Virus record (IMG/VR): IMGVR_UViG_3300035670_000143
Span: 10,950 to 74,949 of that record
DNA from: a virus
Length of the DNA stretch: 64,000 bases
Strand: one strand, 5' to 3'
This document shows positions 1-37,074 of the stretch, one piece after another. The notes below the pieces were generated by a model, which saw nothing but the letters and a program-made list of their open reading frames with translations, did not search any database and was not told where the DNA came from. How positions within the stretch are numbered: the first letter of the stretch is position 1; every line of letters begins with the position of its first letter. Made by a program: the position numbers and the translations under genes.

Positions 1-3000
1 GCAACTCAAGCTAAGACTGGTAACACTAAAGCTAGATCAATGCGTAATGTCAAGAATGCTGTTGATGGAGTTACTAAAGCAGAAAAAGAAGCAGGATATA
101 CAATTAAAAAGACTACGCAAGCGACCGCTGCTTCAACAATGCCTACTGTTATATCTAAGCGTAGAACTGGTGACCGACCGGTTGGAACGGGTTATGGGTC
201 TCTTGTCTCAGAAAAAGATGTAAGAGCGCAAAGATTAATACCACCGGTTACCATTCCTGGTATCGCCAAGTTAAATCAAGAAATTGAAAAAGAATTGGAA
301 AGGATTAAGGGTCTATCTAGAAAAGGCCCACGCTCTGTAACTGCTGGCTGGGAAAGACTGTTTGGTAAGGCTGGGAAACTCGGTGTCTCCCCTCAGGATG
401 CAAGCACTGCTTTGCTTGGCTTTACTGATAGAGCAAATGCGCTAATTCAAAAACCTGGAAAGGCTGTTAGTGAGGCCGTATCAAAATCTGTCGAAACAAC
501 ATTAGATAAATTAACAGGGATGATGCCTCTTACGTCAGAAGCGATACTCTCTTCTTTCTCTCAATATAATGACAGCATTACAAAGTCTGGCGGTAAAGTT
601 AGTGATATTGTTAAGATCACCCAATCCAAGATTGCTCAAAAACTTGGCTCCGCTGGTCTCACGTTCCAGTCTGACACGTTAAAGGGAATTCTTGATGAGT
701 TTTCAAAAGGTACAGTTTTAAATGTTGGTGGGGTCATAGACACACTTGAGGCTGGTGCTACCCCCACGAAGAAACAGTTCAAAGATTTGTTTAGGGGTTT
801 TGGTCGTGGTACAAGTGCTAAATTGTTCCCATCAAATATTAAAGATGATATTCAAGCAATGATTCTTGGTGATAAAGATATTATTAAAGCCATAAAAAGA
901 GCTCCAGTGACTGCTGTTGATTACGCTGTTGAGGCAACTAAGGATTTATATGATGATTTCGAAGAAGGCACAACAATGCAATTCTTGGATCGCGTTAAGA
1001 AGCTGGAAGAGGATGCATCAGATCCAAAGTCTCGTCGTCGTATCCGTGATTTAACTAAAGGCATTTTACAAAAAACAACAGGGCCGGCGTACTATAGCGA
1101 TTATATACCTGAAAGAAAGAGAGCTCGTTTAGGGACTCTTCATTTGGAAGAAGCCTCTATAAAAGAAGCAGAATCTTTAAGAAGAAAAATTGCAGATCTT
1201 GAGGCAGCAAGAGCATCTGTGGAGAGAGCAGCAGAGCGTTCTGTTTCTGAAGCATTGAGTCAATCTTATACACCAAGAACAGTTGATGAATTTATTAATG
1301 ATGCTAAAAGAGGAGTATTTGAACCTAGAGAGGGTATGAGCAAGGCTGAGGCTACAGCGGTTAAATCTGGATTTGGTGCTGGGTATCAGAGAAGACTGAA
1401 AAAGATAGATGAAGATATTTCTAAAGCAAGAGCAAGGCTCGGTCTTGTATCTAAACAAGCCCCAGGTTTTTATGCAAGAAATATGCCTTTACCAAAAACA
1501 TTGGATGAACTTGAGGATATAGCATCTGGGATTGGGAGATTGGGCGATGCTCCTATTGTTGATGTTATTGGGGATAGAAGACCATCAGACTTTAGTTATG
1601 AGGCACTACAGTCGGTCAGGGGGGCGAGAATTGAAAGAGAAATGGGGATGCCTTTCAGACAAGTTGGGGAAGGCGGAATCATACGCTCAAGAGGTAGAAA
1701 TGTAAGAGATCTTATCCTTCGCGGTAGGAAGAAGATGGCGGAGGAGGCAAGAAGAAAATTTGCTTTCATGAGCCGTAAGCAGTACCCAGGTCTTTGGGCT
1801 GCGGCTGACATGCTAAAGAAGAATACTGGGTTAATGTCAATGTTGCCTTTGGCTGCTCTTGGCCCTGCTCTGGCTGGTATGGCTGATGTTCCTGGTGGTT
1901 TGTTAGGAAAACTGTTTGGTGGTGGTGCTGCCGGTGCAGCAATGATGGCTGTTGGTGGTGGTATTGGTGGTGGTGGTCTTGAAGAAACTCTTCTTGATAA
2001 GTTACTAGCAAAAAGAGTTGGTGATCCTAAGAAGGCTAAGGATTTCAAAAAAGCTATTATTGCTAAATTAACTAGCCTTGGTGGTGAAGGCAAAAGCTAT
2101 CTTGATATATTAACTCAACCTTTGAGTGCGCTTGGTGATCAGGTTGATGATCTAGTTTCAGGTCTTCCTGATGTTGTTAGACCTAAGAAATCGGTCAGTA
2201 GAATTACTGATATTATTTCTAAAGGCCCAGAGGCAATTGCTAAAAATGTTAATCATGTTGTTGATACAGCAGCTAGATCGCTTGATCAAATAATTGGTCC
2301 AGATGGTGACATTGCTAATGTCGGTTCAAATATTGATAATATGCTTAACAGAAGTATTTCTGTTTCGCAAAAAAGAAGTGCTGCTAATATCAAGGAAAGT
2401 GTTGATGAAGTTAAAAAATCCACTAAAGAGATTCGCCCTGAGCGATATTTGCAAAATATATCTGATTCAATAACTGATCCACTTGAAAAATTAAATGCTG
2501 CTAAAGATGAAGCCGTGAAGGATATTGTTAAGCAGGCTAGAACTCGCTCTACAGAAAGAAAGCCGCGCATTGATGCTTTGAGAAGAATTGGTCAAGATCT
2601 TGGATTAAGTGACGAAGCAATTGATGGAGTGCTCAAGTCATTTAGTGATGATATTGCTACAGTTAATAAGTCACTAGGCAGAACTCCTTCTGGTGCAAAA
2701 ATACAGGGCGAGGGCAGAAAGAGCGTTCAGGCTGTAGAAGAGAAAGTAACCAAGACTCGTAAAAAGGCTAGTGAAACTGTCAAAACAGCCATTACTAAAG
2801 ATATATGGGATGCGGCAGAAGAGGCAAAAGATGCTGCTATAGCAGCATCAAGAGTACCTGTTCCTTCAGCGGGTCAATTAATTTATGAAAGAGGAATGGC
2901 TCAGATTGAAGAGGCTAAGGCGAAAGCCAAGGCTGTTGTTGCTAAAGATATTTGGGATGATGTTGCTGAGACTGCGGATGAGGCTGCTGCAGCAGTTGTT

Positions 3001-10436: not shown

Positions 10437-12490
10437 TGACTGCCAATTATAATGAATCTCAGCAGTATAATAATGCTAATTATTCTTATAGTGGCACAGA
10501 CCTAGTTTGGGATAATTCTTCCATATCATACGACAGCATCACGTTGTCTTATGATGATTATCCATTAAGAACGGCTTCGGGATCGGCTGTTGGATCCTCA
10601 ACTTCTTCTGGTGATAAGATCTACACCCAGAGAACAGCGACTTCTTCTGGGTCTGGATCTTCATCAAGCCAATTTGCTTATCTAAAAACCTCTAGCGTAT
10701 CGGGTTCTGCTTCTGGCTCTGCTTCTTCAACCGAATCTGTGTTGATTCCAAGGGGAGCCACCGGTAGCGCTACAGGTGGTTCAAATACTGTTTATGATAA
10801 GACAAATCGACTTGAGAGGCAAGTTGTCGGTACGGGCAATGGTAGTCATGGAATTAATAGCAACAGCTTTGTTCCATCAGTGTTGCCTTGGAATGATTCA
10901 TATTATTCGATAACATTTAATAGTAATGGATATAAGTTCTATGGTTTAGATGTTGAGCCGAGCATTGCTGCAGCCGGTCTGTTTGTTGAGTCTAACCTTA
11001 CTGTCTCCGCTTATGAGATTCAGTATGCTTCGGCATCCATTTCTTCAAACACAGAAACATTTGTTTCTGCTATAGAGATACAGTATGCTCTGATCTCGGT
11101 CAGCGGCCTTTCTGTTTCTGTTGTTTTGGCTCTTGAAGAGCAACGAGCAAGAATTGCTATTGATATCGAATCTAATGCTGTAATTGACACGATGAAGGAT
11201 GCTTATGCAAGAGCATCTCTTAGTGGTGATCTTACTGCTGTTTCTTCGCCAATTGAAATCCAGTATGCAAGTTCTAGTGTTTCATTTGATGCTGAATGCA
11301 CCCCAACTGCTATTGAGATTCTGTATGCGGATCCGGTGGACCAATCCATTGAATCTGAATTTACATCTAATGCAACAAGAGTACGGGTCGTTAGTTGTAG
11401 TTTGTCCATTGAAGCCAGCGTAAATGTTGGAGCGTATAAGTTTGCTAGGGCATTGATTGATAACATAATTGACGCTCAGTTGACAGCGACTGCTTATAAG
11501 GAAACATGGATGACATCATCAATGAGTGCTGATGGTGATGTTACTCCGAGAGCGATTGAAATTCAGTATGCATACCCAGATCCTATGGTATCTGAACTTG
11601 ATGCAACTATAAGAGCCATTGAAATTCTTTTGACCGGATCAGTTGTTTCATTTGAGTCTGATGCAACAGTCACGGCATATGAAATTCAGCTTGGCAAAGC
11701 AGATCTTTCTATTGAAGGTTACACATTAACTGTAGCCCAGGAAATTCTCTATCCAGAAATTGCTATTGATATAACTTCCGATGCTCAGGTCACGGCGTAC
11801 AAGATTGCATACTCAGAGTGTAGTCTGTCAATTGAATCTGACATGTCCGTAACAGCATATGAGATTCAGTATGCTCGTCAGGATATAAATGTTGAGTCTG
11901 AACTTGTTGCTGATGGTACAAAGATTGCTTATGCCGCCGCTGATCTTTCCGTTGAAGGATACACGGTAACTGTTGGTAAGGAAATACTGTTTGCCAGGAT
12001 TTCTGTAGCATTTAGCACTAATGTCCTGTTCGTTACTCCTCTCAGGTTCAGCGATAATATTGTTGAAGATACACAGGTTATTAGGACACTCCTGTTGCTT
12101 GATGATAAACCGCTGACCGAGCACAATAGAACATTTGCTAGTTCAATAAATCCTTCATTTATTGAGACAACTAACTGGAAAAATTCAAGAAACAGGTACT
12201 ACAAGAAATCAAGCGGAAGAAAAACTTTTTCAATAACTTGGTCATATGTTCCAAACAATAGAGAGAATACAGTTGATTTAAAGTTTGGAAGGGATATGAT
12301 TAATAGAATAGCAAACGATCCAGATATACATACATTGAGATACTTAAACATCGACTCTGATGGGACGAATCCGTACTCAGAGGAGCAGTTGGATGTTGTT
12401 GTTAAGAGCTATTCAGAAAAATTAGTGAGAAGAGACATTGACAATGATGTATACTTTTGGGACTGCGCTTTGGAGTTAGAGGAAGTATAA
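10436..12490 (+). CDS. Tail fibre with ~17 x 20-aa repeats and a C-terminal distal-tail-like domain
   Basis: Periodic EIQYA-type repeats; C-terminus paralogous to 6615..7010. Confidence 0.65.
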   Translation: MTANYNESQQYNNANYSYSGTDLVWDNSSISYDSITLSYDDYPLRTASGSAVGSSTSSGDKIYTQRTATSSGSGSSSSQFAYLKTSSVSGSASGSASSTESVLIPRGATGSATGGSNTVYDKTNRLERQVVGTGNGSHGINSNSFVPSVLPWNDSYYSITFNSNGYKFYGLDVEPSIAAAGLFVESNLTVSAYEIQYASASISSNTETFVSAIEIQYALISVSGLSVSVVLALEEQRARIAIDIESNAVIDTMKDAYARASLSGDLTAVSSPIEIQYASSSVSFDAECTPTAIEILYADPVDQSIESEFTSNATRVRVVSCSLSIEASVNVGAYKFARALIDNIIDAQLTATAYKETWMTSSMSADGDVTPRAIEIQYAYPDPMVSELDATIRAIEILLTGSVVSFESDATVTAYEIQLGKADLSIEGYTLTVAQEILYPEIAIDITSDAQVTAYKIAYSECSLSIESDMSVTAYEIQYARQDINVESELVADGTKIAYAAADLSVEGYTVTVGKEILFARISVAFSTNVLFVTPLRFSDNIVEDTQVIRTLLLLDDKPLTEHNRTFASSINPSFIETTNWKNSRNRYYKKSSGRKTFSITWSYVPNNRENTVDLKFGRDMINRIANDPDIHTLRYLNIDSDGTNPYSEEQLDVVVKSYSEKLVRRDIDNDVYFWDCALELEEV

Positions 12491-32245: not shown

Positions 32246-33163
32246 ATGCTATTTGTAGATAAAAGAAAGGGAGATAGGATGCCTACGCATCAGATTATCC
32301 CGACACCAAGTTTGGGTTTGAATAAAGCTCTTGGTGGTGGTTTGAATACTGGGGCAACACACTTATTCTGGGGTACACCATCTGTTGGTAAAACAACGAT
32401 GTGCTTCAGAATTCTTGCTGAAGCCCAAAAGATGGGATTCAGGCCCATCATTATTGATTCAGAATATTCATATTCTGATGAGTATGCCAGGAAGTGTGGT
32501 ATTGATACTGACGACATTGTTGTTGTACAATCAACAATTGTTGAGGATATTTTAAAGCATCTTATTGGATATCTGAATCATCCTGATGAGAAGCACATCT
32601 TCTTGTTTGATAGTTTATCAAATATTATCAAGGAAGAGTTTTATGATAAACCTGATGGTGGTAAGGCAATGGGGCTTCAAGCAAGGTCGCAAGGGTATTT
32701 TCTTCAGAAATTAGTTAACCACCTTCATAAGGAAAAGAATATCATGCTCTTTATTGCTCATCAGACTATTGACTTAAGCGGCATGTACGCTGTTACTAAG
32801 GCTAAAATGGGTAATACAGTGCATCACAATATGCATAATATTGTAAAATTATTTTTATCTATGTCACAAAAAGAAATGGAGAGAGATGAGAGTAGTAGGA
32901 TTACTAGTCAGAGAGCGACATGGACAATCGAAAAGACCAAACAACTCCCGACAATTGGAACAACAGGATATTACTATGTCCTGCCAGAAGTTGGATCGAT
33001 TGATCAGAGTAGAGAACTCATTGACATGGCTATTGAAAGTAGCATTATTGAGCGTCGTGGTGCTTGGTATAATTACGGTGATAGTAAGTGGAATGGGCTG
33101 AGCGCCATCGATCTGACAGAAGATCAGCAAGAAGAAATTTATAAACTAATCATGGAAAAATAA
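32246..33163 (+). CDS. recA: RecA/UvsX-like recombinase
   Basis: PTPSLGLNKALGGG, GTPSVGKT, IDSE, FDS, ERRGAWY. Confidence 0.9.
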   Translation: MLFVDKRKGDRMPTHQIIPTPSLGLNKALGGGLNTGATHLFWGTPSVGKTTMCFRILAEAQKMGFRPIIIDSEYSYSDEYARKCGIDTDDIVVVQSTIVEDILKHLIGYLNHPDEKHIFLFDSLSNIIKEEFYDKPDGGKAMGLQARSQGYFLQKLVNHLHKEKNIMLFIAHQTIDLSGMYAVTKAKMGNTVHHNMHNIVKLFLSMSQKEMERDESSRITSQRATWTIEKTKQLPTIGTTGYYYVLPEVGSIDQSRELIDMAIESSIIERRGAWYNYGDSKWNGLSAIDLTEDQQEEIYKLIMEK

Positions 33164-33635: not shown

Positions 33636-33934
33636 TGAAAAGAGATGAAAAACAAGAAGCAAAACGTGATGGGGCTAAGACAGTTAAAAACTCTGGTCGT
33701 GGTCTTAAGAAGGGTGATGCAACTTTGAATAAGTTTTTGCTTGATTATAAACATAATGCATCAACATTTACTTTATCTAATGATGCTTGGGTTAAGATGA
33801 GAAAGGACGCATGGCGATCCAATTACAGGTATCCATGTATATCTGTTGTTCTAGGTGAGAACTCAGAAAACAAAGTAGCCATTATTGACTGGGATGTTTT
33901 CAAGGATCTCATCGAAGGTTCAGATTATGAGTAA
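33635..33934 (+). CDS. Holliday-junction resolvase-like PD-(D/E)XK nuclease
   Basis: NSGRG..KGDA....LLDYK pattern. Confidence 0.65.
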   Translation: MKRDEKQEAKRDGAKTVKNSGRGLKKGDATLNKFLLDYKHNASTFTLSNDAWVKMRKDAWRSNYRYPCISVVLGENSENKVAIIDWDVFKDLIEGSDYE

Positions 33935-34043
33935 TTTTATTATTATTGTAGCAACATTCTATGTTGTATTTATTGTTGCATCTAGAATGATACTGAAATC
34001 AATTAAAGAAATAGACGAAAAGGATCCTTTTGATGAAACCTAG
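33927..34043 (+). CDS. Small membrane peptide (38 aa)
   Basis: MSNFIIIVATFYVVFIVASRM..., one TM helix, bridges the neighbouring genes. Confidence 0.45.
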   Translation: MSNFIIIVATFYVVFIVASRMILKSIKEIDEKDPFDET

Positions 34044-35121
34044 TTTTGGTTCTTTATTTGCTGGTGCTGGTGGTTTTGACATTGGTTTTGAGCAAGCCGG
34101 ATGGGAGTGCTCATGGCAGGTTGAATGGGATAAAAATTGTCAAAAAGTTTTATCTCATAAATGGCCGGATGTCCCGAAATATCTTGATGTTCAGACGGTT
34201 AGTGGATATCAGTTGACACCAGTAGACACGATCATATTTGGTTCACCATGCCAAGATCTATCAGTAGCAGGTCGCCGTGCTGGTCTAATTGGTGAGAAAT
34301 CATCAATGTTTTTTGAAGCAACAAGAATTATCAAGGAGATGAGAAATGCAACAGGAAATCAATACCCAAGAGTCGCTGTTTGGGAAAACGTCCCAGGCTC
34401 CCTCACAAGTAATAAAGGAGCAGACTTTGCAGCAGTCCTTGACGAAATGGCCAACATCGGGGCATTGGCAATCGAATGGCATGTGCTGGACGCACAATGG
34501 TTCGGAGTCCCCCAGCGTAGAAGAAGAGTCTTCCTCATCGCTTCTTTCGATCCTGCAATCGTCAGAAGAAGTGGACAACAAATACTTCCTATCGCAGAAA
34601 ACAGCGCAGGGGATATTAAGAAGATCAGGGCGAAAAGAGGGGTTGATTCCACCTCTTTTGAAGAAGGCTCTCGTGATAGCCTCAGAGAGTTAGATGTTTT
34701 TGTAAAAGCAAGAAGAGCTCAAAGTTCAGAGGATTATGAAACATGGGAATCTGGGAGGCCATCGCCTACATTGAATGCTTTTGATAATGCTAGTGAATCA
34801 AGGGCTACTGTTTTAATCGTTGACGGAACCAGAACTAACGATTTTCGAGTGTATGATGATGGTACGGTTCCAACATTAAAGGCTAGAATGGGTACTGGGG
34901 GAGGACAAGTTCCACTGGTCTCACGGTCAGATCAGGGCTACCGACTCAGGAGGTTAACGCCCTTGGAGTGTGAAAGACTTATGGGTTTCCCTGATGACCA
35001 TACAAAATATGGCAATGATGGTAAGGTTATATCTGACACTAATAGATATAAAATGATAGGAAATGCTGTTGCTGTGCCTGTTTCTAAATGGGTAGCAAAT
35101 AATCTAAAACAATTAATCTAA
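34033..35121 (+). CDS. C5 cytosine DNA methyltransferase (main/alpha frame)
   Basis: Motif I SLFAGAGG, IV GSPCQ, VI ENV, VIII QRRRRVF, IX RRLTPLECERLMGFP, X GNAV. Confidence 0.95.
   Translation: MKPSFGSLFAGAGGFDIGFEQAGWECSWQVEWDKNCQKVLSHKWPDVPKYLDVQTVSGYQLTPVDTIIFGSPCQDLSVAGRRAGLIGEKSSMFFEATRIIKEMRNATGNQYPRVAVWENVPGSLTSNKGADFAAVLDEMANIGALAIEWHVLDAQWFGVPQRRRRVFLIASFDPAIVRRSGQQILPIAENSAGDIKKIRAKRGVDSTSFEEGSRDSLRELDVFVKARRAQSSEDYETWESGRPSPTLNAFDNASESRATVLIVDGTRTNDFRVYDDGTVPTLKARMGTGGGQVPLVSRSDQGYRLRRLTPLECERLMGFPDDHTKYGNDGKVISDTNRYKMIGNAVAVPVSKWVANNLKQLI
34346..34693 (+). CDS. Overprinted +1-frame gene; putative methyltransferase beta polypeptide
   Basis: AAGGAG at 34333-34338, 7 nt before the ATG; W.TSG...G.CW..N.SESPSVEEE...LSILQ...VDNKYFLS...GILRR. 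Confidence 0.65.
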   Translation: MQQEINTQESLFGKTSQAPSQVIKEQTLQQSLTKWPTSGHWQSNGMCWTHNGSESPSVEEESSSSLLSILQSSEEVDNKYFLSQKTAQGILRRSGRKEGLIPPLLKKALVIASES

Positions 35122-35147: not shown

Positions 35148-35465
35148 ATGGCTGATATTATTGTTGACCCAGACTGGCTGGCTGAGCAGATGGGTGATAA
35201 GGCAACAGAATTTCTTGAATGCATGAGAATTGTTCAAGATATTATTGAGAACCCTGACTCTTATGTTGGTATTCAGGCATTAAAATATGCCAATGTTTTG
35301 GCTGCATATAGAACTCAAATGATCATTAAATCACAAGCATATAAAAGAAGATCGCAGATCATGTCAGAAAATGATAAACTTACAAACGATATTTGGAAAA
35401 CAATGTATGAATCGTTAGTAGAGAATATCAATGTTCTTAAGTTAATAGGAAGAGGTGTTCATTGA
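35148..35465 (+). CDS. Hypothetical helical protein
   Basis: 105-aa ORF upstream of the Cas4-like gene. Confidence 0.6.
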   Translation: MADIIVDPDWLAEQMGDKATEFLECMRIVQDIIENPDSYVGIQALKYANVLAAYRTQMIIKSQAYKRRSQIMSENDKLTNDIWKTMYESLVENINVLKLIGRGVH

Positions 35466-36208
35466 TGAAAGCGCTAAACTACCTAAAAAAGGGTCCAGAC
35501 ATAAAGCAGGCTGTTGTTGAAGATGAGATGACGAATGCTGATATTGAGAATGAACTTATTGAAAAAATAGATAAGTCTTTCGTAGTGAGAAATGACAAGC
35601 AGTTTAAAAAAGTAGGGGGCTTTCATCCTAGTTATACAAACCAATGCTCCAGATTTTGGTTTTATCTATTTGAAGGAGTAGAAATGGAAACAAGTTTCTC
35701 CCCTCAAACATATAGGATTTTTGACAACGGTCATGCTGTGCATGAAAGAATTTACGGGTACTTCCGTGACATGGGTATCCTCGTAGCAGAAGAAATACCT
35801 GTGACTTATTCCGACCCCCCGATTGAGGGTACTGCCGACGGTATCATTGATTTTCATGGCAATAAACTTATTGAACTAAAATCAATATCCAATGAAGGCT
35901 TTGAGTACAGAAGAATATATAAGAAGCCGAAAGACGATCACTTTAGACAGGCTCAAATATATATGAGATGCCTTGATCTTGATCAAGCATTTGTTATTTA
36001 TGAAAATAAAAATAATCAACAAATACTTCCTCTGTTGATCGACAGAGATGATGCATTTATTGACAAGTTGTTTGTTAAATATCGTAAGTTTTATAAAAAC
36101 TTTACCGACAATACTATCCCAGCTCGTCCATATAAAATGACATCTAAAAATTGTAGCAATTGTGATCTTGCTTCAATGTGTTGGAACGATGAAAGAAGTG
36201 GTGAATAA
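35465..36208 (+). CDS. Cas4-like / RecB-family exonuclease with Fe-S cysteines
   Basis: N-terminal Cys (NQCSR), GHAVH, ADG...IELKS, QAQIY, C-terminal CSNCDLASMC. Confidence 0.85.
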   Translation: MKALNYLKKGPDIKQAVVEDEMTNADIENELIEKIDKSFVVRNDKQFKKVGGFHPSYTNQCSRFWFYLFEGVEMETSFSPQTYRIFDNGHAVHERIYGYFRDMGILVAEEIPVTYSDPPIEGTADGIIDFHGNKLIELKSISNEGFEYRRIYKKPKDDHFRQAQIYMRCLDLDQAFVIYENKNNQQILPLLIDRDDAFIDKLFVKYRKFYKNFTDNTIPARPYKMTSKNCSNCDLASMCWNDERSGE

Positions 36209-36512
36209 TTTTGAAAAGATTATATGCAAAAATGAAGAGTGTAATCGCCTCTTTGAACCAAAGACTTATAACTCTATATATTGCAGCGCAGAATGTAGAA
36301 AAAAAGTAACCAATAAAAGATTACTTGATAAATATCATTCTAACAAAATAAACTCTAAATTAAAAAGAGTATGCAAAACTAAGAGTTGCGACACCATTCT
36401 ATCTAGATATAATAAAGAAAATATTTGTGAAAAGTGTAAAGAAGAAAGGTTGGTGAAAAGACTACTCCAGTGGGGTTGGAGTGAGGAGAGAGCCAGAGGC
36501 AGTGAGTATTAA
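36189..36512 (+). CDS. Cys-rich zinc-finger protein
   Basis: CKNEEC..FEP......YCSAEC; CKTKSC; CEKC. Confidence 0.65.
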   Translation: MKEVVNNFEKIICKNEECNRLFEPKTYNSIYCSAECRKKVTNKRLLDKYHSNKINSKLKRVCKTKSCDTILSRYNKENICEKCKEERLVKRLLQWGWSEERARGSEY

Positions 36513-37074
36513 AAAACTTGTAGGTTATAAAAACTGTATATCAATTGACCCTTCATCAAATTCTTTGGCCTGGGCAGTCATAAATTATGACAATAAACTT
36601 ATCGGGACAGGAAAAATATCTCTTGGTAAAGGGTCTTCAATGTCAGCAAAGTTACAGTCTATAAATGATCAACTACCTGAAATATTAAGCAAATATAAAG
36701 TTGATAGAGCTGTTATTGAGCAGTCAGTTTATATTCAAAACTTTCAATCAAGTAGGATATTATCTTATATAATTGGCCATACTTTTGGTGAGATAATAAG
36801 ATGTAACATTCAATGTGAAGATGTTTCTCCTTTATCTTGGAAGCCTGGCATTGGATATAAAAATCTTTCAAAAAGAGAAGTTGAAGAACTAAAAAAACAA
36901 GGAATTGATTTAAGCAATCAAGCTAAACTTAAGACCGAAAGAAAAGATCGTGTTAGAAGAATTATTATGATGGCTTATGGGAAAGATATAGAAAATATTG
37001 AAGATGATGATATTGTAGACGCAATTGGTATTGGTTTATGGTATCATCTAAAGTATGCCGCTAGAGCCATATAA
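36502..37074 (+). CDS. ruvC: RuvC-like resolvase
   Basis: ISIDPS, AVIEQ, PLSWK, DDIVDAIGIG. Confidence 0.85.
   Translation: MSIKKLVGYKNCISIDPSSNSLAWAVINYDNKLIGTGKISLGKGSSMSAKLQSINDQLPEILSKYKVDRAVIEQSVYIQNFQSSRILSYIIGHTFGEIIRCNIQCEDVSPLSWKPGIGYKNLSKREVEELKKQGIDLSNQAKLKTERKDRVRRIIMMAYGKDIENIEDDDIVDAIGIGLWYHLKYAARAI

Follow-up and report, generated by a model that had tools for sequence, protein, structure and literature searches.

Does the C5 cytosine DNA methyltransferase (MTase) gene carried by the virus of IMG/VR record IMGVR_UViG_3300035670_000143 encode a second polypeptide in another frame of the same strand? The window analyzed here is a stretch of 64,000 nucleotides (positions 10,950 to 74,949) of this 74.9-kb record, and all coordinates below are those of the window unless another source is named. 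A first-pass annotation, made from the sequence alone, had proposed that an open reading frame (ORF) of 115 amino acids at 34346-34693, preceded by AAGGAG and a 7-nucleotide spacer, lies hidden inside this gene. The ORF and its upstream sequence were confirmed, and a second polypeptide ending in the segment that normally follows motif VIII is strongly supported by the depletion of stop codons, by selection that changes frame within the ORF, by a start site that is kept among relatives, and by structural and profile mapping.

A +1 reading frame nested in the methyltransferase gene

The nested ORF, termed ALT here, starts with ATG at 34346, ends with TAG at 34691-34693 and reads one base ahead of the MTase frame. 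The Shine-Dalgarno (SD)-like AAGGAG lies 7 nucleotides upstream of the ATG and in the main frame forms the Lys-Glu codons of IIKEMR. Two parts of ALT can be told apart, namely a leader that overprints main-frame motifs VI-VIII as a passenger kept open, and a C-terminal module that is under selection in the +1 frame. The features of both frames are as follows.

34346..34693, + strand: nested +1-frame gene ALT, 115 amino acids and TAG, wholly inside the MTase ORF
34333-34338, + strand: SD-like sequence AAGGAG
34346..34528, + strand: ALT leader, codons 1-61
34529..34684, + strand: ALT C-terminal module, codons 62-113 (SSSSLLSILQ..VDNKYFLS..GILRR..IPPLLKKAL)
34033..35121, + strand: C5 cytosine DNA MTase gene, main frame, 362 amino acids (PF00145, TIGR00675)
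34057-34074, + strand: motif I, FAGAGG, main frame
34243-34254, + strand: motif IV, SPCQ, main frame
34384-34398, + strand: motif VI, ENVPG, main frame
34513-34527, + strand: motif VIII, QRRRR, main frame
34546..34701, + strand: main-frame linker, residues 173-224, the out-of-frame reading of the ALT module, unconserved
34948-35001, + strand: motif IX, RRLTPLECERLMGFPDDH, main frame
35059-35082, + strand: motif X, GNAVAVPV, main frame

The six motifs lie in one frame and are invariant across an alignment of 39 relatives. What the main frame lacks is the in-frame segment after motif VIII that opens the small domain, and the matching module sits in the +1 frame. Alignments of the main frame to M.HhaI and M.HaeIII obtained with phmmer break off at residue 171 (RRRRVFLIA) and restart near motif IX. 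AlphaFold predicts the main chain with confidence at residues 1-190 and 310-363 but poorly in between, with a predicted local distance difference test (pLDDT) score below 50 at residues 192-226. The earlier description of the main frame after motif VIII as a featureless linker was thus borne out, as this part is both unconserved and modelled as disordered, and the +1 frame does contain the segment SLLSILQ..VDNKYFLS..GILRR. A shift in base composition over the overlap, which had likewise been noticed, is real, with a G+C content of 0.50-0.52 over 34350-34600 compared with 0.41-0.44 in the flanks of the gene and ~0.30-0.36 in neighbouring genes, yet it is unspecific for ALT when taken alone, since a second rise lies over motif IX.

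The stretch was also matched by Logan contigs from four runs of one study with zero indels or base differences, one contig of 1102 nucleotides covering 33911-35012. The two-frame layout is therefore not an artefact of assembly.

Selection changes frame after motif VIII

Stop-codon depletion in the +1 frame across homologous MTases, a check suggested along with the original proposal, was assessed by synonymous-codon shuffles that preserve the main protein and the codon usage of the gene. For the window gene, the +1 interval was open in 0/1000 shuffles, with about 5 stops expected. Among 24 non-redundant genes, the probability of an open interval was ≤0.02 in 21 (range 0-0.11), and where 3-6 stops were expected none were seen. 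The 60-codon leader alone has a median probability of 0.046 of staying open under shuffling, yet it is free of stops in 52/52 relatives that are <80% identical to each other in ALT. The dcm gene of E. coli contains stops in the same +1 stretch over motifs VI-VIII.

Codon choice and sequence identity locate the constraint more closely. In divergent pairs, the same codon is used for the same residue at a frequency of 0.36 upstream of the overlap, 0.48 in the leader, 0.67 in the module and 0.31 downstream. Over ALT columns 13-62, identity is 0.62 in the main frame vs 0.41 in ALT, and the main-frame wobble position is the most variable. This relation is reversed over columns 63-110, where ALT reaches an identity of 0.55, the main frame at 0.29 is on a par with the unused frame at 0.26, and the third position of ALT varies most. 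The same switch is found in 62 independent close pairs, for which the chance level is about 22-26% synonymous differences in either frame: 61% of the differences in the leader are synonymous in the main frame and 28% in ALT, while in the module 60% are synonymous in ALT and 20% in the main frame. The pattern holds over genomes of 40-68% G+C.

These identity and close-pair patterns show that for ~48 codons the +1 frame is the coding frame under selection, while the main frame need only stay open. Purifying selection in the +1 frame is confined to the C-terminal module, and the homology of the main frame to solved MTases stops at the place where selection changes frame (residue 171).

The start site of ALT

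The leader stays free of stops even though its amino-acid sequence is unconserved. An ATG is found within 16 codons upstream of one aligned point in 45/52 sequences, compared with 23 expected from shuffles, and the ATG of ALT occupies one of two alternative positions seen among relatives. Conservation of the SD sequence across homologues, which had also been put forward as a check, was determined in the same relatives: 33/52 have an SD of four or more bases, and AGGAG-N7-ATG occurs at the same aligned place in 19/52 non-redundant relatives. The alignment of relatives contains no block of invariant nucleotides at the junction after motif VIII. Behind the module, the tail is unconserved, with a length of about 5 to 25 residues or more, and the stop varies in position. 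The open leader, the kept ATG, the lack of an invariant junction and the variable tail and stop favour independent initiation over frameshifting. Taken together, these comparisons identify ALT as a real overlapping gene, and we infer from them that it is translated.

Distribution of the nested frame

A tblastn search with ALT matched 113 phage records, and every match fell within a methyltransferase gene. The +1 match in the annotated gene was checked for Caulobacter phage BL94, Mycobacterium phage Lucky2013, Streptococcus phage Javan261 and Curvibacter phage PCA1, and was found in 4/4. In a broader collection drawn from IMG/VR phages, mycobacteriophages, Streptococcus and Caulobacter phages, E. 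coli phage-plasmids and prophages of several bacterial phyla, ALT or its C-terminal module was present in the +1 frame relative to motifs VI-VIII at about 275 of 294 loci, distributed as follows.

L001-L004 and IMG/VR relatives of the MTase: ALT in +1 at 77/84
IMG/VR loci reached via ALT-containing database proteins: 85/87
Bacterial genomes (Alpha-, Beta- and Gammaproteobacteria, Acidobacteria, others): 39/40
More distant IMG/VR set: 74/81
E. coli phage-plasmid (1095-amino-acid gene annotated as Dam family) and Deinococcus plasmid: both

One of the loci scored as negative (L082) does carry a divergent copy that is visible by eye. In the 294 loci there were 0 cases of the module in frame 0 or apart from a methyltransferase gene.

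ALT matched no family in Pfam and NCBIfam. It does match PHROG 16143 ("DNA methyltransferase") at 3e-10, a family that seems to have been built from alternative-frame calls like ALT. An exhaustive profile search of 1.84 billion cluster representatives gave 5199 matches at E ≤ 1e-3 and 3479 at E ≤ 1e-10, and the representatives were unnamed, called "hypothetical protein" or mislabelled. Many of the ~5000 alternative-frame cluster representatives are singletons on short contigs. Stand-alone "hypothetical proteins" of 150-180 amino acids (P0059, P0184) were considered as free-standing forms and rejected, as they too are nested in MTase genes.

A search with a profile of the module, which has the conserved pattern SLS.ILQ..V..KYYLS.KA..GILRRA.KRGK.LP..L..AL, gave 4743 matches, and the module was in frame with motif VIII in 0/8 of those read. 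No canonical relative with a frame-0 module beside motif VIII was found among the best 120-150 matches listed, which makes this a weak negative, and a word-index search for longer in-frame forms found none containing the whole of ALT. Chimeras in which N-terminal parts of the MTase are joined to the +1 frame at varied points also occur (P0033, P0243, P0219, P0156), and are probably frameshift errors or decaying prophage genes.

The 'Dam family' methyltransferase of 1095 amino acids on an E. coli plasmid (NZ_CP015997.1; L172:811-4098) also holds a C5-MTase part, with an intein-like insertion at the PCQ motif (main frame ..VVHN|CQAFS..) and a nested +1 ORF of 163 codons. This methyltransferase is found on about 238 non-mobilizable E. 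coli plasmids of ~90-100 kb, and a plasmid of this type offers a tractable model host for the nested gene.

Probable correspondence of the module to the small domain of single-chain enzymes

The structure of the module was modelled with AlphaFold in P0014, a database protein that consists of ALT followed in frame by the C-terminal half. The leader is disordered in this model (pLDDT about 50), and the module, predicted at a pLDDT of 91-95, forms one short and two long helices. Superpositions on C5-MTases gave 2.4-2.7 Å over 78-86 residues overall and start with the opening residues of the module, the matched ranges being as follows.

M.HhaI: model 61..235 on chain 187..306, 2.4 Å over 78 residues
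Shigella Dcm (3lx6): model 64..234 on chain 308..437, 2.4 Å over 82 residues
EhMeth: model 64..235 on chain 189..304, 2.5 Å over 83 residues

At the sequence level, hhalign placed ALT residues 65-96 on residues 309-338 of E. coli Dcm (TLAQLLDP..VEAKYILTP..) as its sole match, with E values of 0.011-0.022.

Several points weigh against reading the module as a displaced part of the enzyme, or reduce the force of the evidence for it. The VIA Z scores of the superpositions (5.3-6.9) lie below the tool's own confidence level, the P0014 model has a predicted template modelling score (pTM) of 0.50, and P0014 itself is a database singleton that may be a frameshift artefact. The hhalign probability of the match to Dcm is 2-4%, indicating weak homology of the module to the canonical segment, and a sequence search of the PDB with the ALT profile gave no match at E up to 10. 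The target-recognition domain (TRD) of the main-frame model is also poorly predicted, which makes the disordered linker unspecific evidence. Finally, the loci share ancestry, so that the per-sequence shuffle probabilities given above are not independent and are not to be multiplied.

The structural and hhalign results, each weak by itself, agree with one another and with the break in main-frame homology. On the basis of these models and alignments, the module appears to represent the segment with which the small domain normally begins after motif VIII, displaced into another frame.

Relatives in which the enzyme is split

In a close relative of the window gene (L217:2146-3175, and likewise L218), the main frame stops after motif VIII, and the +1 ORF runs from the same AAGGAG-N7-ATG through the module into the TRD and motifs IX-X, with a dual-coding overlap of ~110 codons. 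Two viral contigs, each from a different metagenome, carry this form at 99-100% identity, and its protein belongs to a 13-member cluster (P0066/P0271) that includes NCBI, ENA and Logan assemblies. Relative to the window gene, the stretch that separates the module from IVDGTR seems to be missing, a loss that joined the +1 frame to the TRD. As no single chain of L217/L218 has all motifs, that enzyme could be active only through use of the internal start, and its persistence suggests that it is active.

Other fusions of ALT to the TRD and motifs IX-X were dropped as evidence of an ancestral beta subunit, since 9/10 of those checked are singletons and may be frameshift errors. One of the nine singletons was seen on three contigs, and only the P0066/P0271 cluster is reproducible.

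The C-terminal half forms a separate ORF at about one locus in ten. The Omega-like mycobacteriophages are examples of this. In one of them, Mycobacterium phage Lucky2013 (L003:1152-2352), gene 113 ('DNA methylase') comprises motifs I-VIII and gene 114 ('hypothetical protein'), in the +1 frame, comprises the TRD-IX-X half, and between them lies the nested ORF (1321-1797 of that locus) with its own stop. The same three-ORF layout is found at L057-60, L085, L092, L135, L161 and L220. Separate C-terminal ORFs imply that the family tolerates being in pieces, and tolerance of splitting is predicted by the fragment complementation of C5-MTases (PMC3404938).

A probable two-chain enzyme and the alternatives

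These findings can be accommodated by the following mechanism. The C5-MTases of these phages and prophages would lack, in the main frame, a module of ~50 residues after motif VIII that would form the start of the small target-recognition domain (SLS.ILE..V..KYYLS and two helices) and would be encoded one base out of phase. The main frame would pass through the DNA of the module as an unconstrained, disordered linker and rejoin the TRD and motifs IX-X. Ribosomes would initiate at the internal ATG behind the SD made by the Lys-Glu codons of IIKEMR, read ~60 passenger codons over motifs VI-VIII, then the module, and then the stop. The small chain would dock on the main chain where the module sits in single-chain enzymes, and the active enzyme would consist of two chains. 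We consider that the nested gene probably does supply the displaced module in trans to a two-chain enzyme, where we infer both the assembly of the chains and the requirement of ALT for activity.

Selection on the module is silent on what the protein does, and it would fit equally well an ALT that is translated but has a role of its own, either as a regulator of how much methylation occurs, of its timing or of its specificity, or as a decoy or competitor that stems from the MTase module. This explanation, which we regard as unlikely but not negligible, would agree with the presence of every catalytic motif in the main frame and with the stop that ALT retains at loci whose C-terminal part shares its frame (L003, L057-60, L085). 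It would leave unaccounted for that the module maps to the canonical structural position in the enzyme, that main-frame homology breaks exactly at the module, that the module is covalently joined to TRD-IX-X in L217/L218, and that ALT, wherever present in the 294 loci, accompanied an MTase gene.

Two frames that overlap on one mRNA could also be connected by +1 ribosomal frameshifting after motif VIII, producing a truncated protein of motifs I-VIII and the module beside the full-length chain, with the upstream ATG unused. Neither the at least 60 open +1 codons upstream of the module (52/52) nor the maintained start would be needed for this, and no invariant nucleotide run marks the junction. 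Database proteins in which ALT continues N-terminal parts of the MTase in a single frame (P0033, P0243, P0219) speak for such a shift; however, their joins lie at differing points and look sporadic, those among the listed matches of the module profile have one member, and the comparable fusions of ALT to the C-terminal part are mostly singletons. We therefore consider frameshifting improbable.

It is more improbable still that the +1 ORF is untranslated and that its openness and conservation follow incidentally from main-frame motifs or from an element at the RNA or DNA level. Much of the conservation of the leader (GKTS, CWT.N.SE.P) can indeed be explained as a by-product of ENVPG and VLDAQ.FGVPQ. 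In the module, however, the main frame and the unused frame are equally unconserved, and the +1 frame displays codon periodicity and a threefold excess of +1-synonymous changes, a pattern that holds across genomes of 40-68% G+C; moreover, shuffles that keep the main protein predict stops, and E. coli dcm has no open frame. With a pair of programmed shifts, +1 following motif VIII and -1 ahead of the ALT stop, translation would yield a single canonical chain colinear with ordinary C5-MTases, but this is hardly credible given the unconserved tail of about 5 to 25 residues or more after the module, the variable stop, the lack of conserved slippery sites in the alignment, and an open leader and maintained start that it leaves unexplained.

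Comparison with known systems

The closest precedent for a two-chain enzyme with a nested chain is M.EcoHK31I, whose second polypeptide likewise lies wholly inside the MTase gene in an alternative frame. There, the internal starts are used, and their silent removal abolishes activity (PMC2836561). The N-terminal part of the beta chain can be partly removed, which resembles the passenger leader of ALT; a resemblance of the two leaders would in any case be expected, since motif VIII is read out of frame in both. In M.EcoHK31I, motif IX resides in the small chain, and motifs I-VIII, the TRD and motif X are found in alpha (PMC2836561; PMC3404938). In contrast, as the first-pass annotation had recognized, motif IX of the window gene is in the main frame (34948-35001), ALT having already ended at 34693, and what has been displaced is the module that follows motif VIII. 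The arrangement described here is also conserved over thousands of protein clusters and several bacterial phyla, unlike that of M.EcoHK31I.

M.AquI resembles the split relatives rather than the window gene. L217/L218 share its layout, a split in the variable region after motif VIII, and in these relatives the overlap comprises ~110 codons. The genes of M.AquI reportedly overlap in different frames. The alpha chain of M.AquI comprises motifs I-VIII and a portion of the variable region, and beta comprises the remaining variable region and motifs IX-X (PMC3404938). A separate C-terminal ORF, present at about one locus in ten, is a further likeness, whereas the main frame of the window gene is continuous through motif X and only the 115-amino-acid chain is separate.

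E. coli Dcm and M.HhaI have the same ten motifs, and the ALT module matches them in position and weakly in sequence and structure (Dcm 309-338; M.HhaI from 187). Their module is in frame with the rest of the enzyme, and the +1 frame of dcm over motifs VI-VIII has stops. With viral overprinted genes ALT shares a same-strand nested position and synonymous-site constraint in the host gene. Unlike these, it did not arise de novo: the part under selection resembles an ancestral segment of the MTase that has been shifted to another frame, and what is new are the passengers, namely the leader of ALT and the linker of the main frame.

The methyltransferase gene and its surroundings

The program-made ORF list gives the MTase ORF as 34030-35121 if TTG at 34030 is taken as the start. 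ATG at 34033, preceded by AAAGGA, is the likelier start. The main frame matches PF00145 at 1.6e-59 with 202 bits (cut-off 22) and TIGR00675 at 6.7e-59 with 200 bits (cut-off 100.65). In runs X1 and X3, an extra Logan contig of 313 nucleotides corresponds exactly to 34680-34992 with 31 differences (~10%), at about 1/20 of the depth and with identical flanks. This is strain-level variation limited to the target-recognition region, from the end of the nested gene on.

By eye, a RecA-like gene (32246-33163) lies upstream of the MTase gene, and downstream are genes for a Cas4/RecB-like nuclease (35462-36208), which has a C-terminal cysteine cluster, and for a RuvC-like resolvase (36481-37074). These neighbours place the MTase within a replication and recombination module. 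No close relative of the virus was found in the phage database, in which only short matches were obtained.

Discussion

The nested +1 arrangement has strong comparative support and represents a novel, widely distributed form of a design that was known but rare. No description of the nested gene was found in the literature searched, a search whose reach did not extend to most subscription journals and REBASE. ALT would rank among the best-supported and most widespread long same-strand nested genes of bacterial viruses, and M.EcoHK31I would become the first described case of a common design and would no longer be a curiosity.

Whether a large and broad family of phage, prophage and phage-plasmid C5-MTases consists of obligate two-chain enzymes, each taking the start of its TRD from an uncalled nested +1 gene, seems to us evenly balanced. 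If true, this would concern thousands of protein clusters at 50% identity, with hosts among Actinobacteria, Firmicutes, Proteobacteria, Acidobacteria and Deinococcus. Codon-optimised or recoded copies of such genes would no longer encode ALT and would silently lose activity, which matters for the synthetic copies used as epigenetic tools, for restriction evasion in phage engineering and in methylome studies. Phage self-methylation would also be subject to a hidden control through the ratio of the two chains. For annotation, roughly 5000 "hypothetical protein" clusters represent the alternative frame, and their host genes carry the label of complete single-chain enzymes.

In terms of evolution, the family would indicate that an ancestral segment moved out of frame can persist as a separate subunit. 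Its sister forms, namely the nested arrangement, the alpha/beta split and the three-ORF layout, would provide a natural series for studying this displacement.

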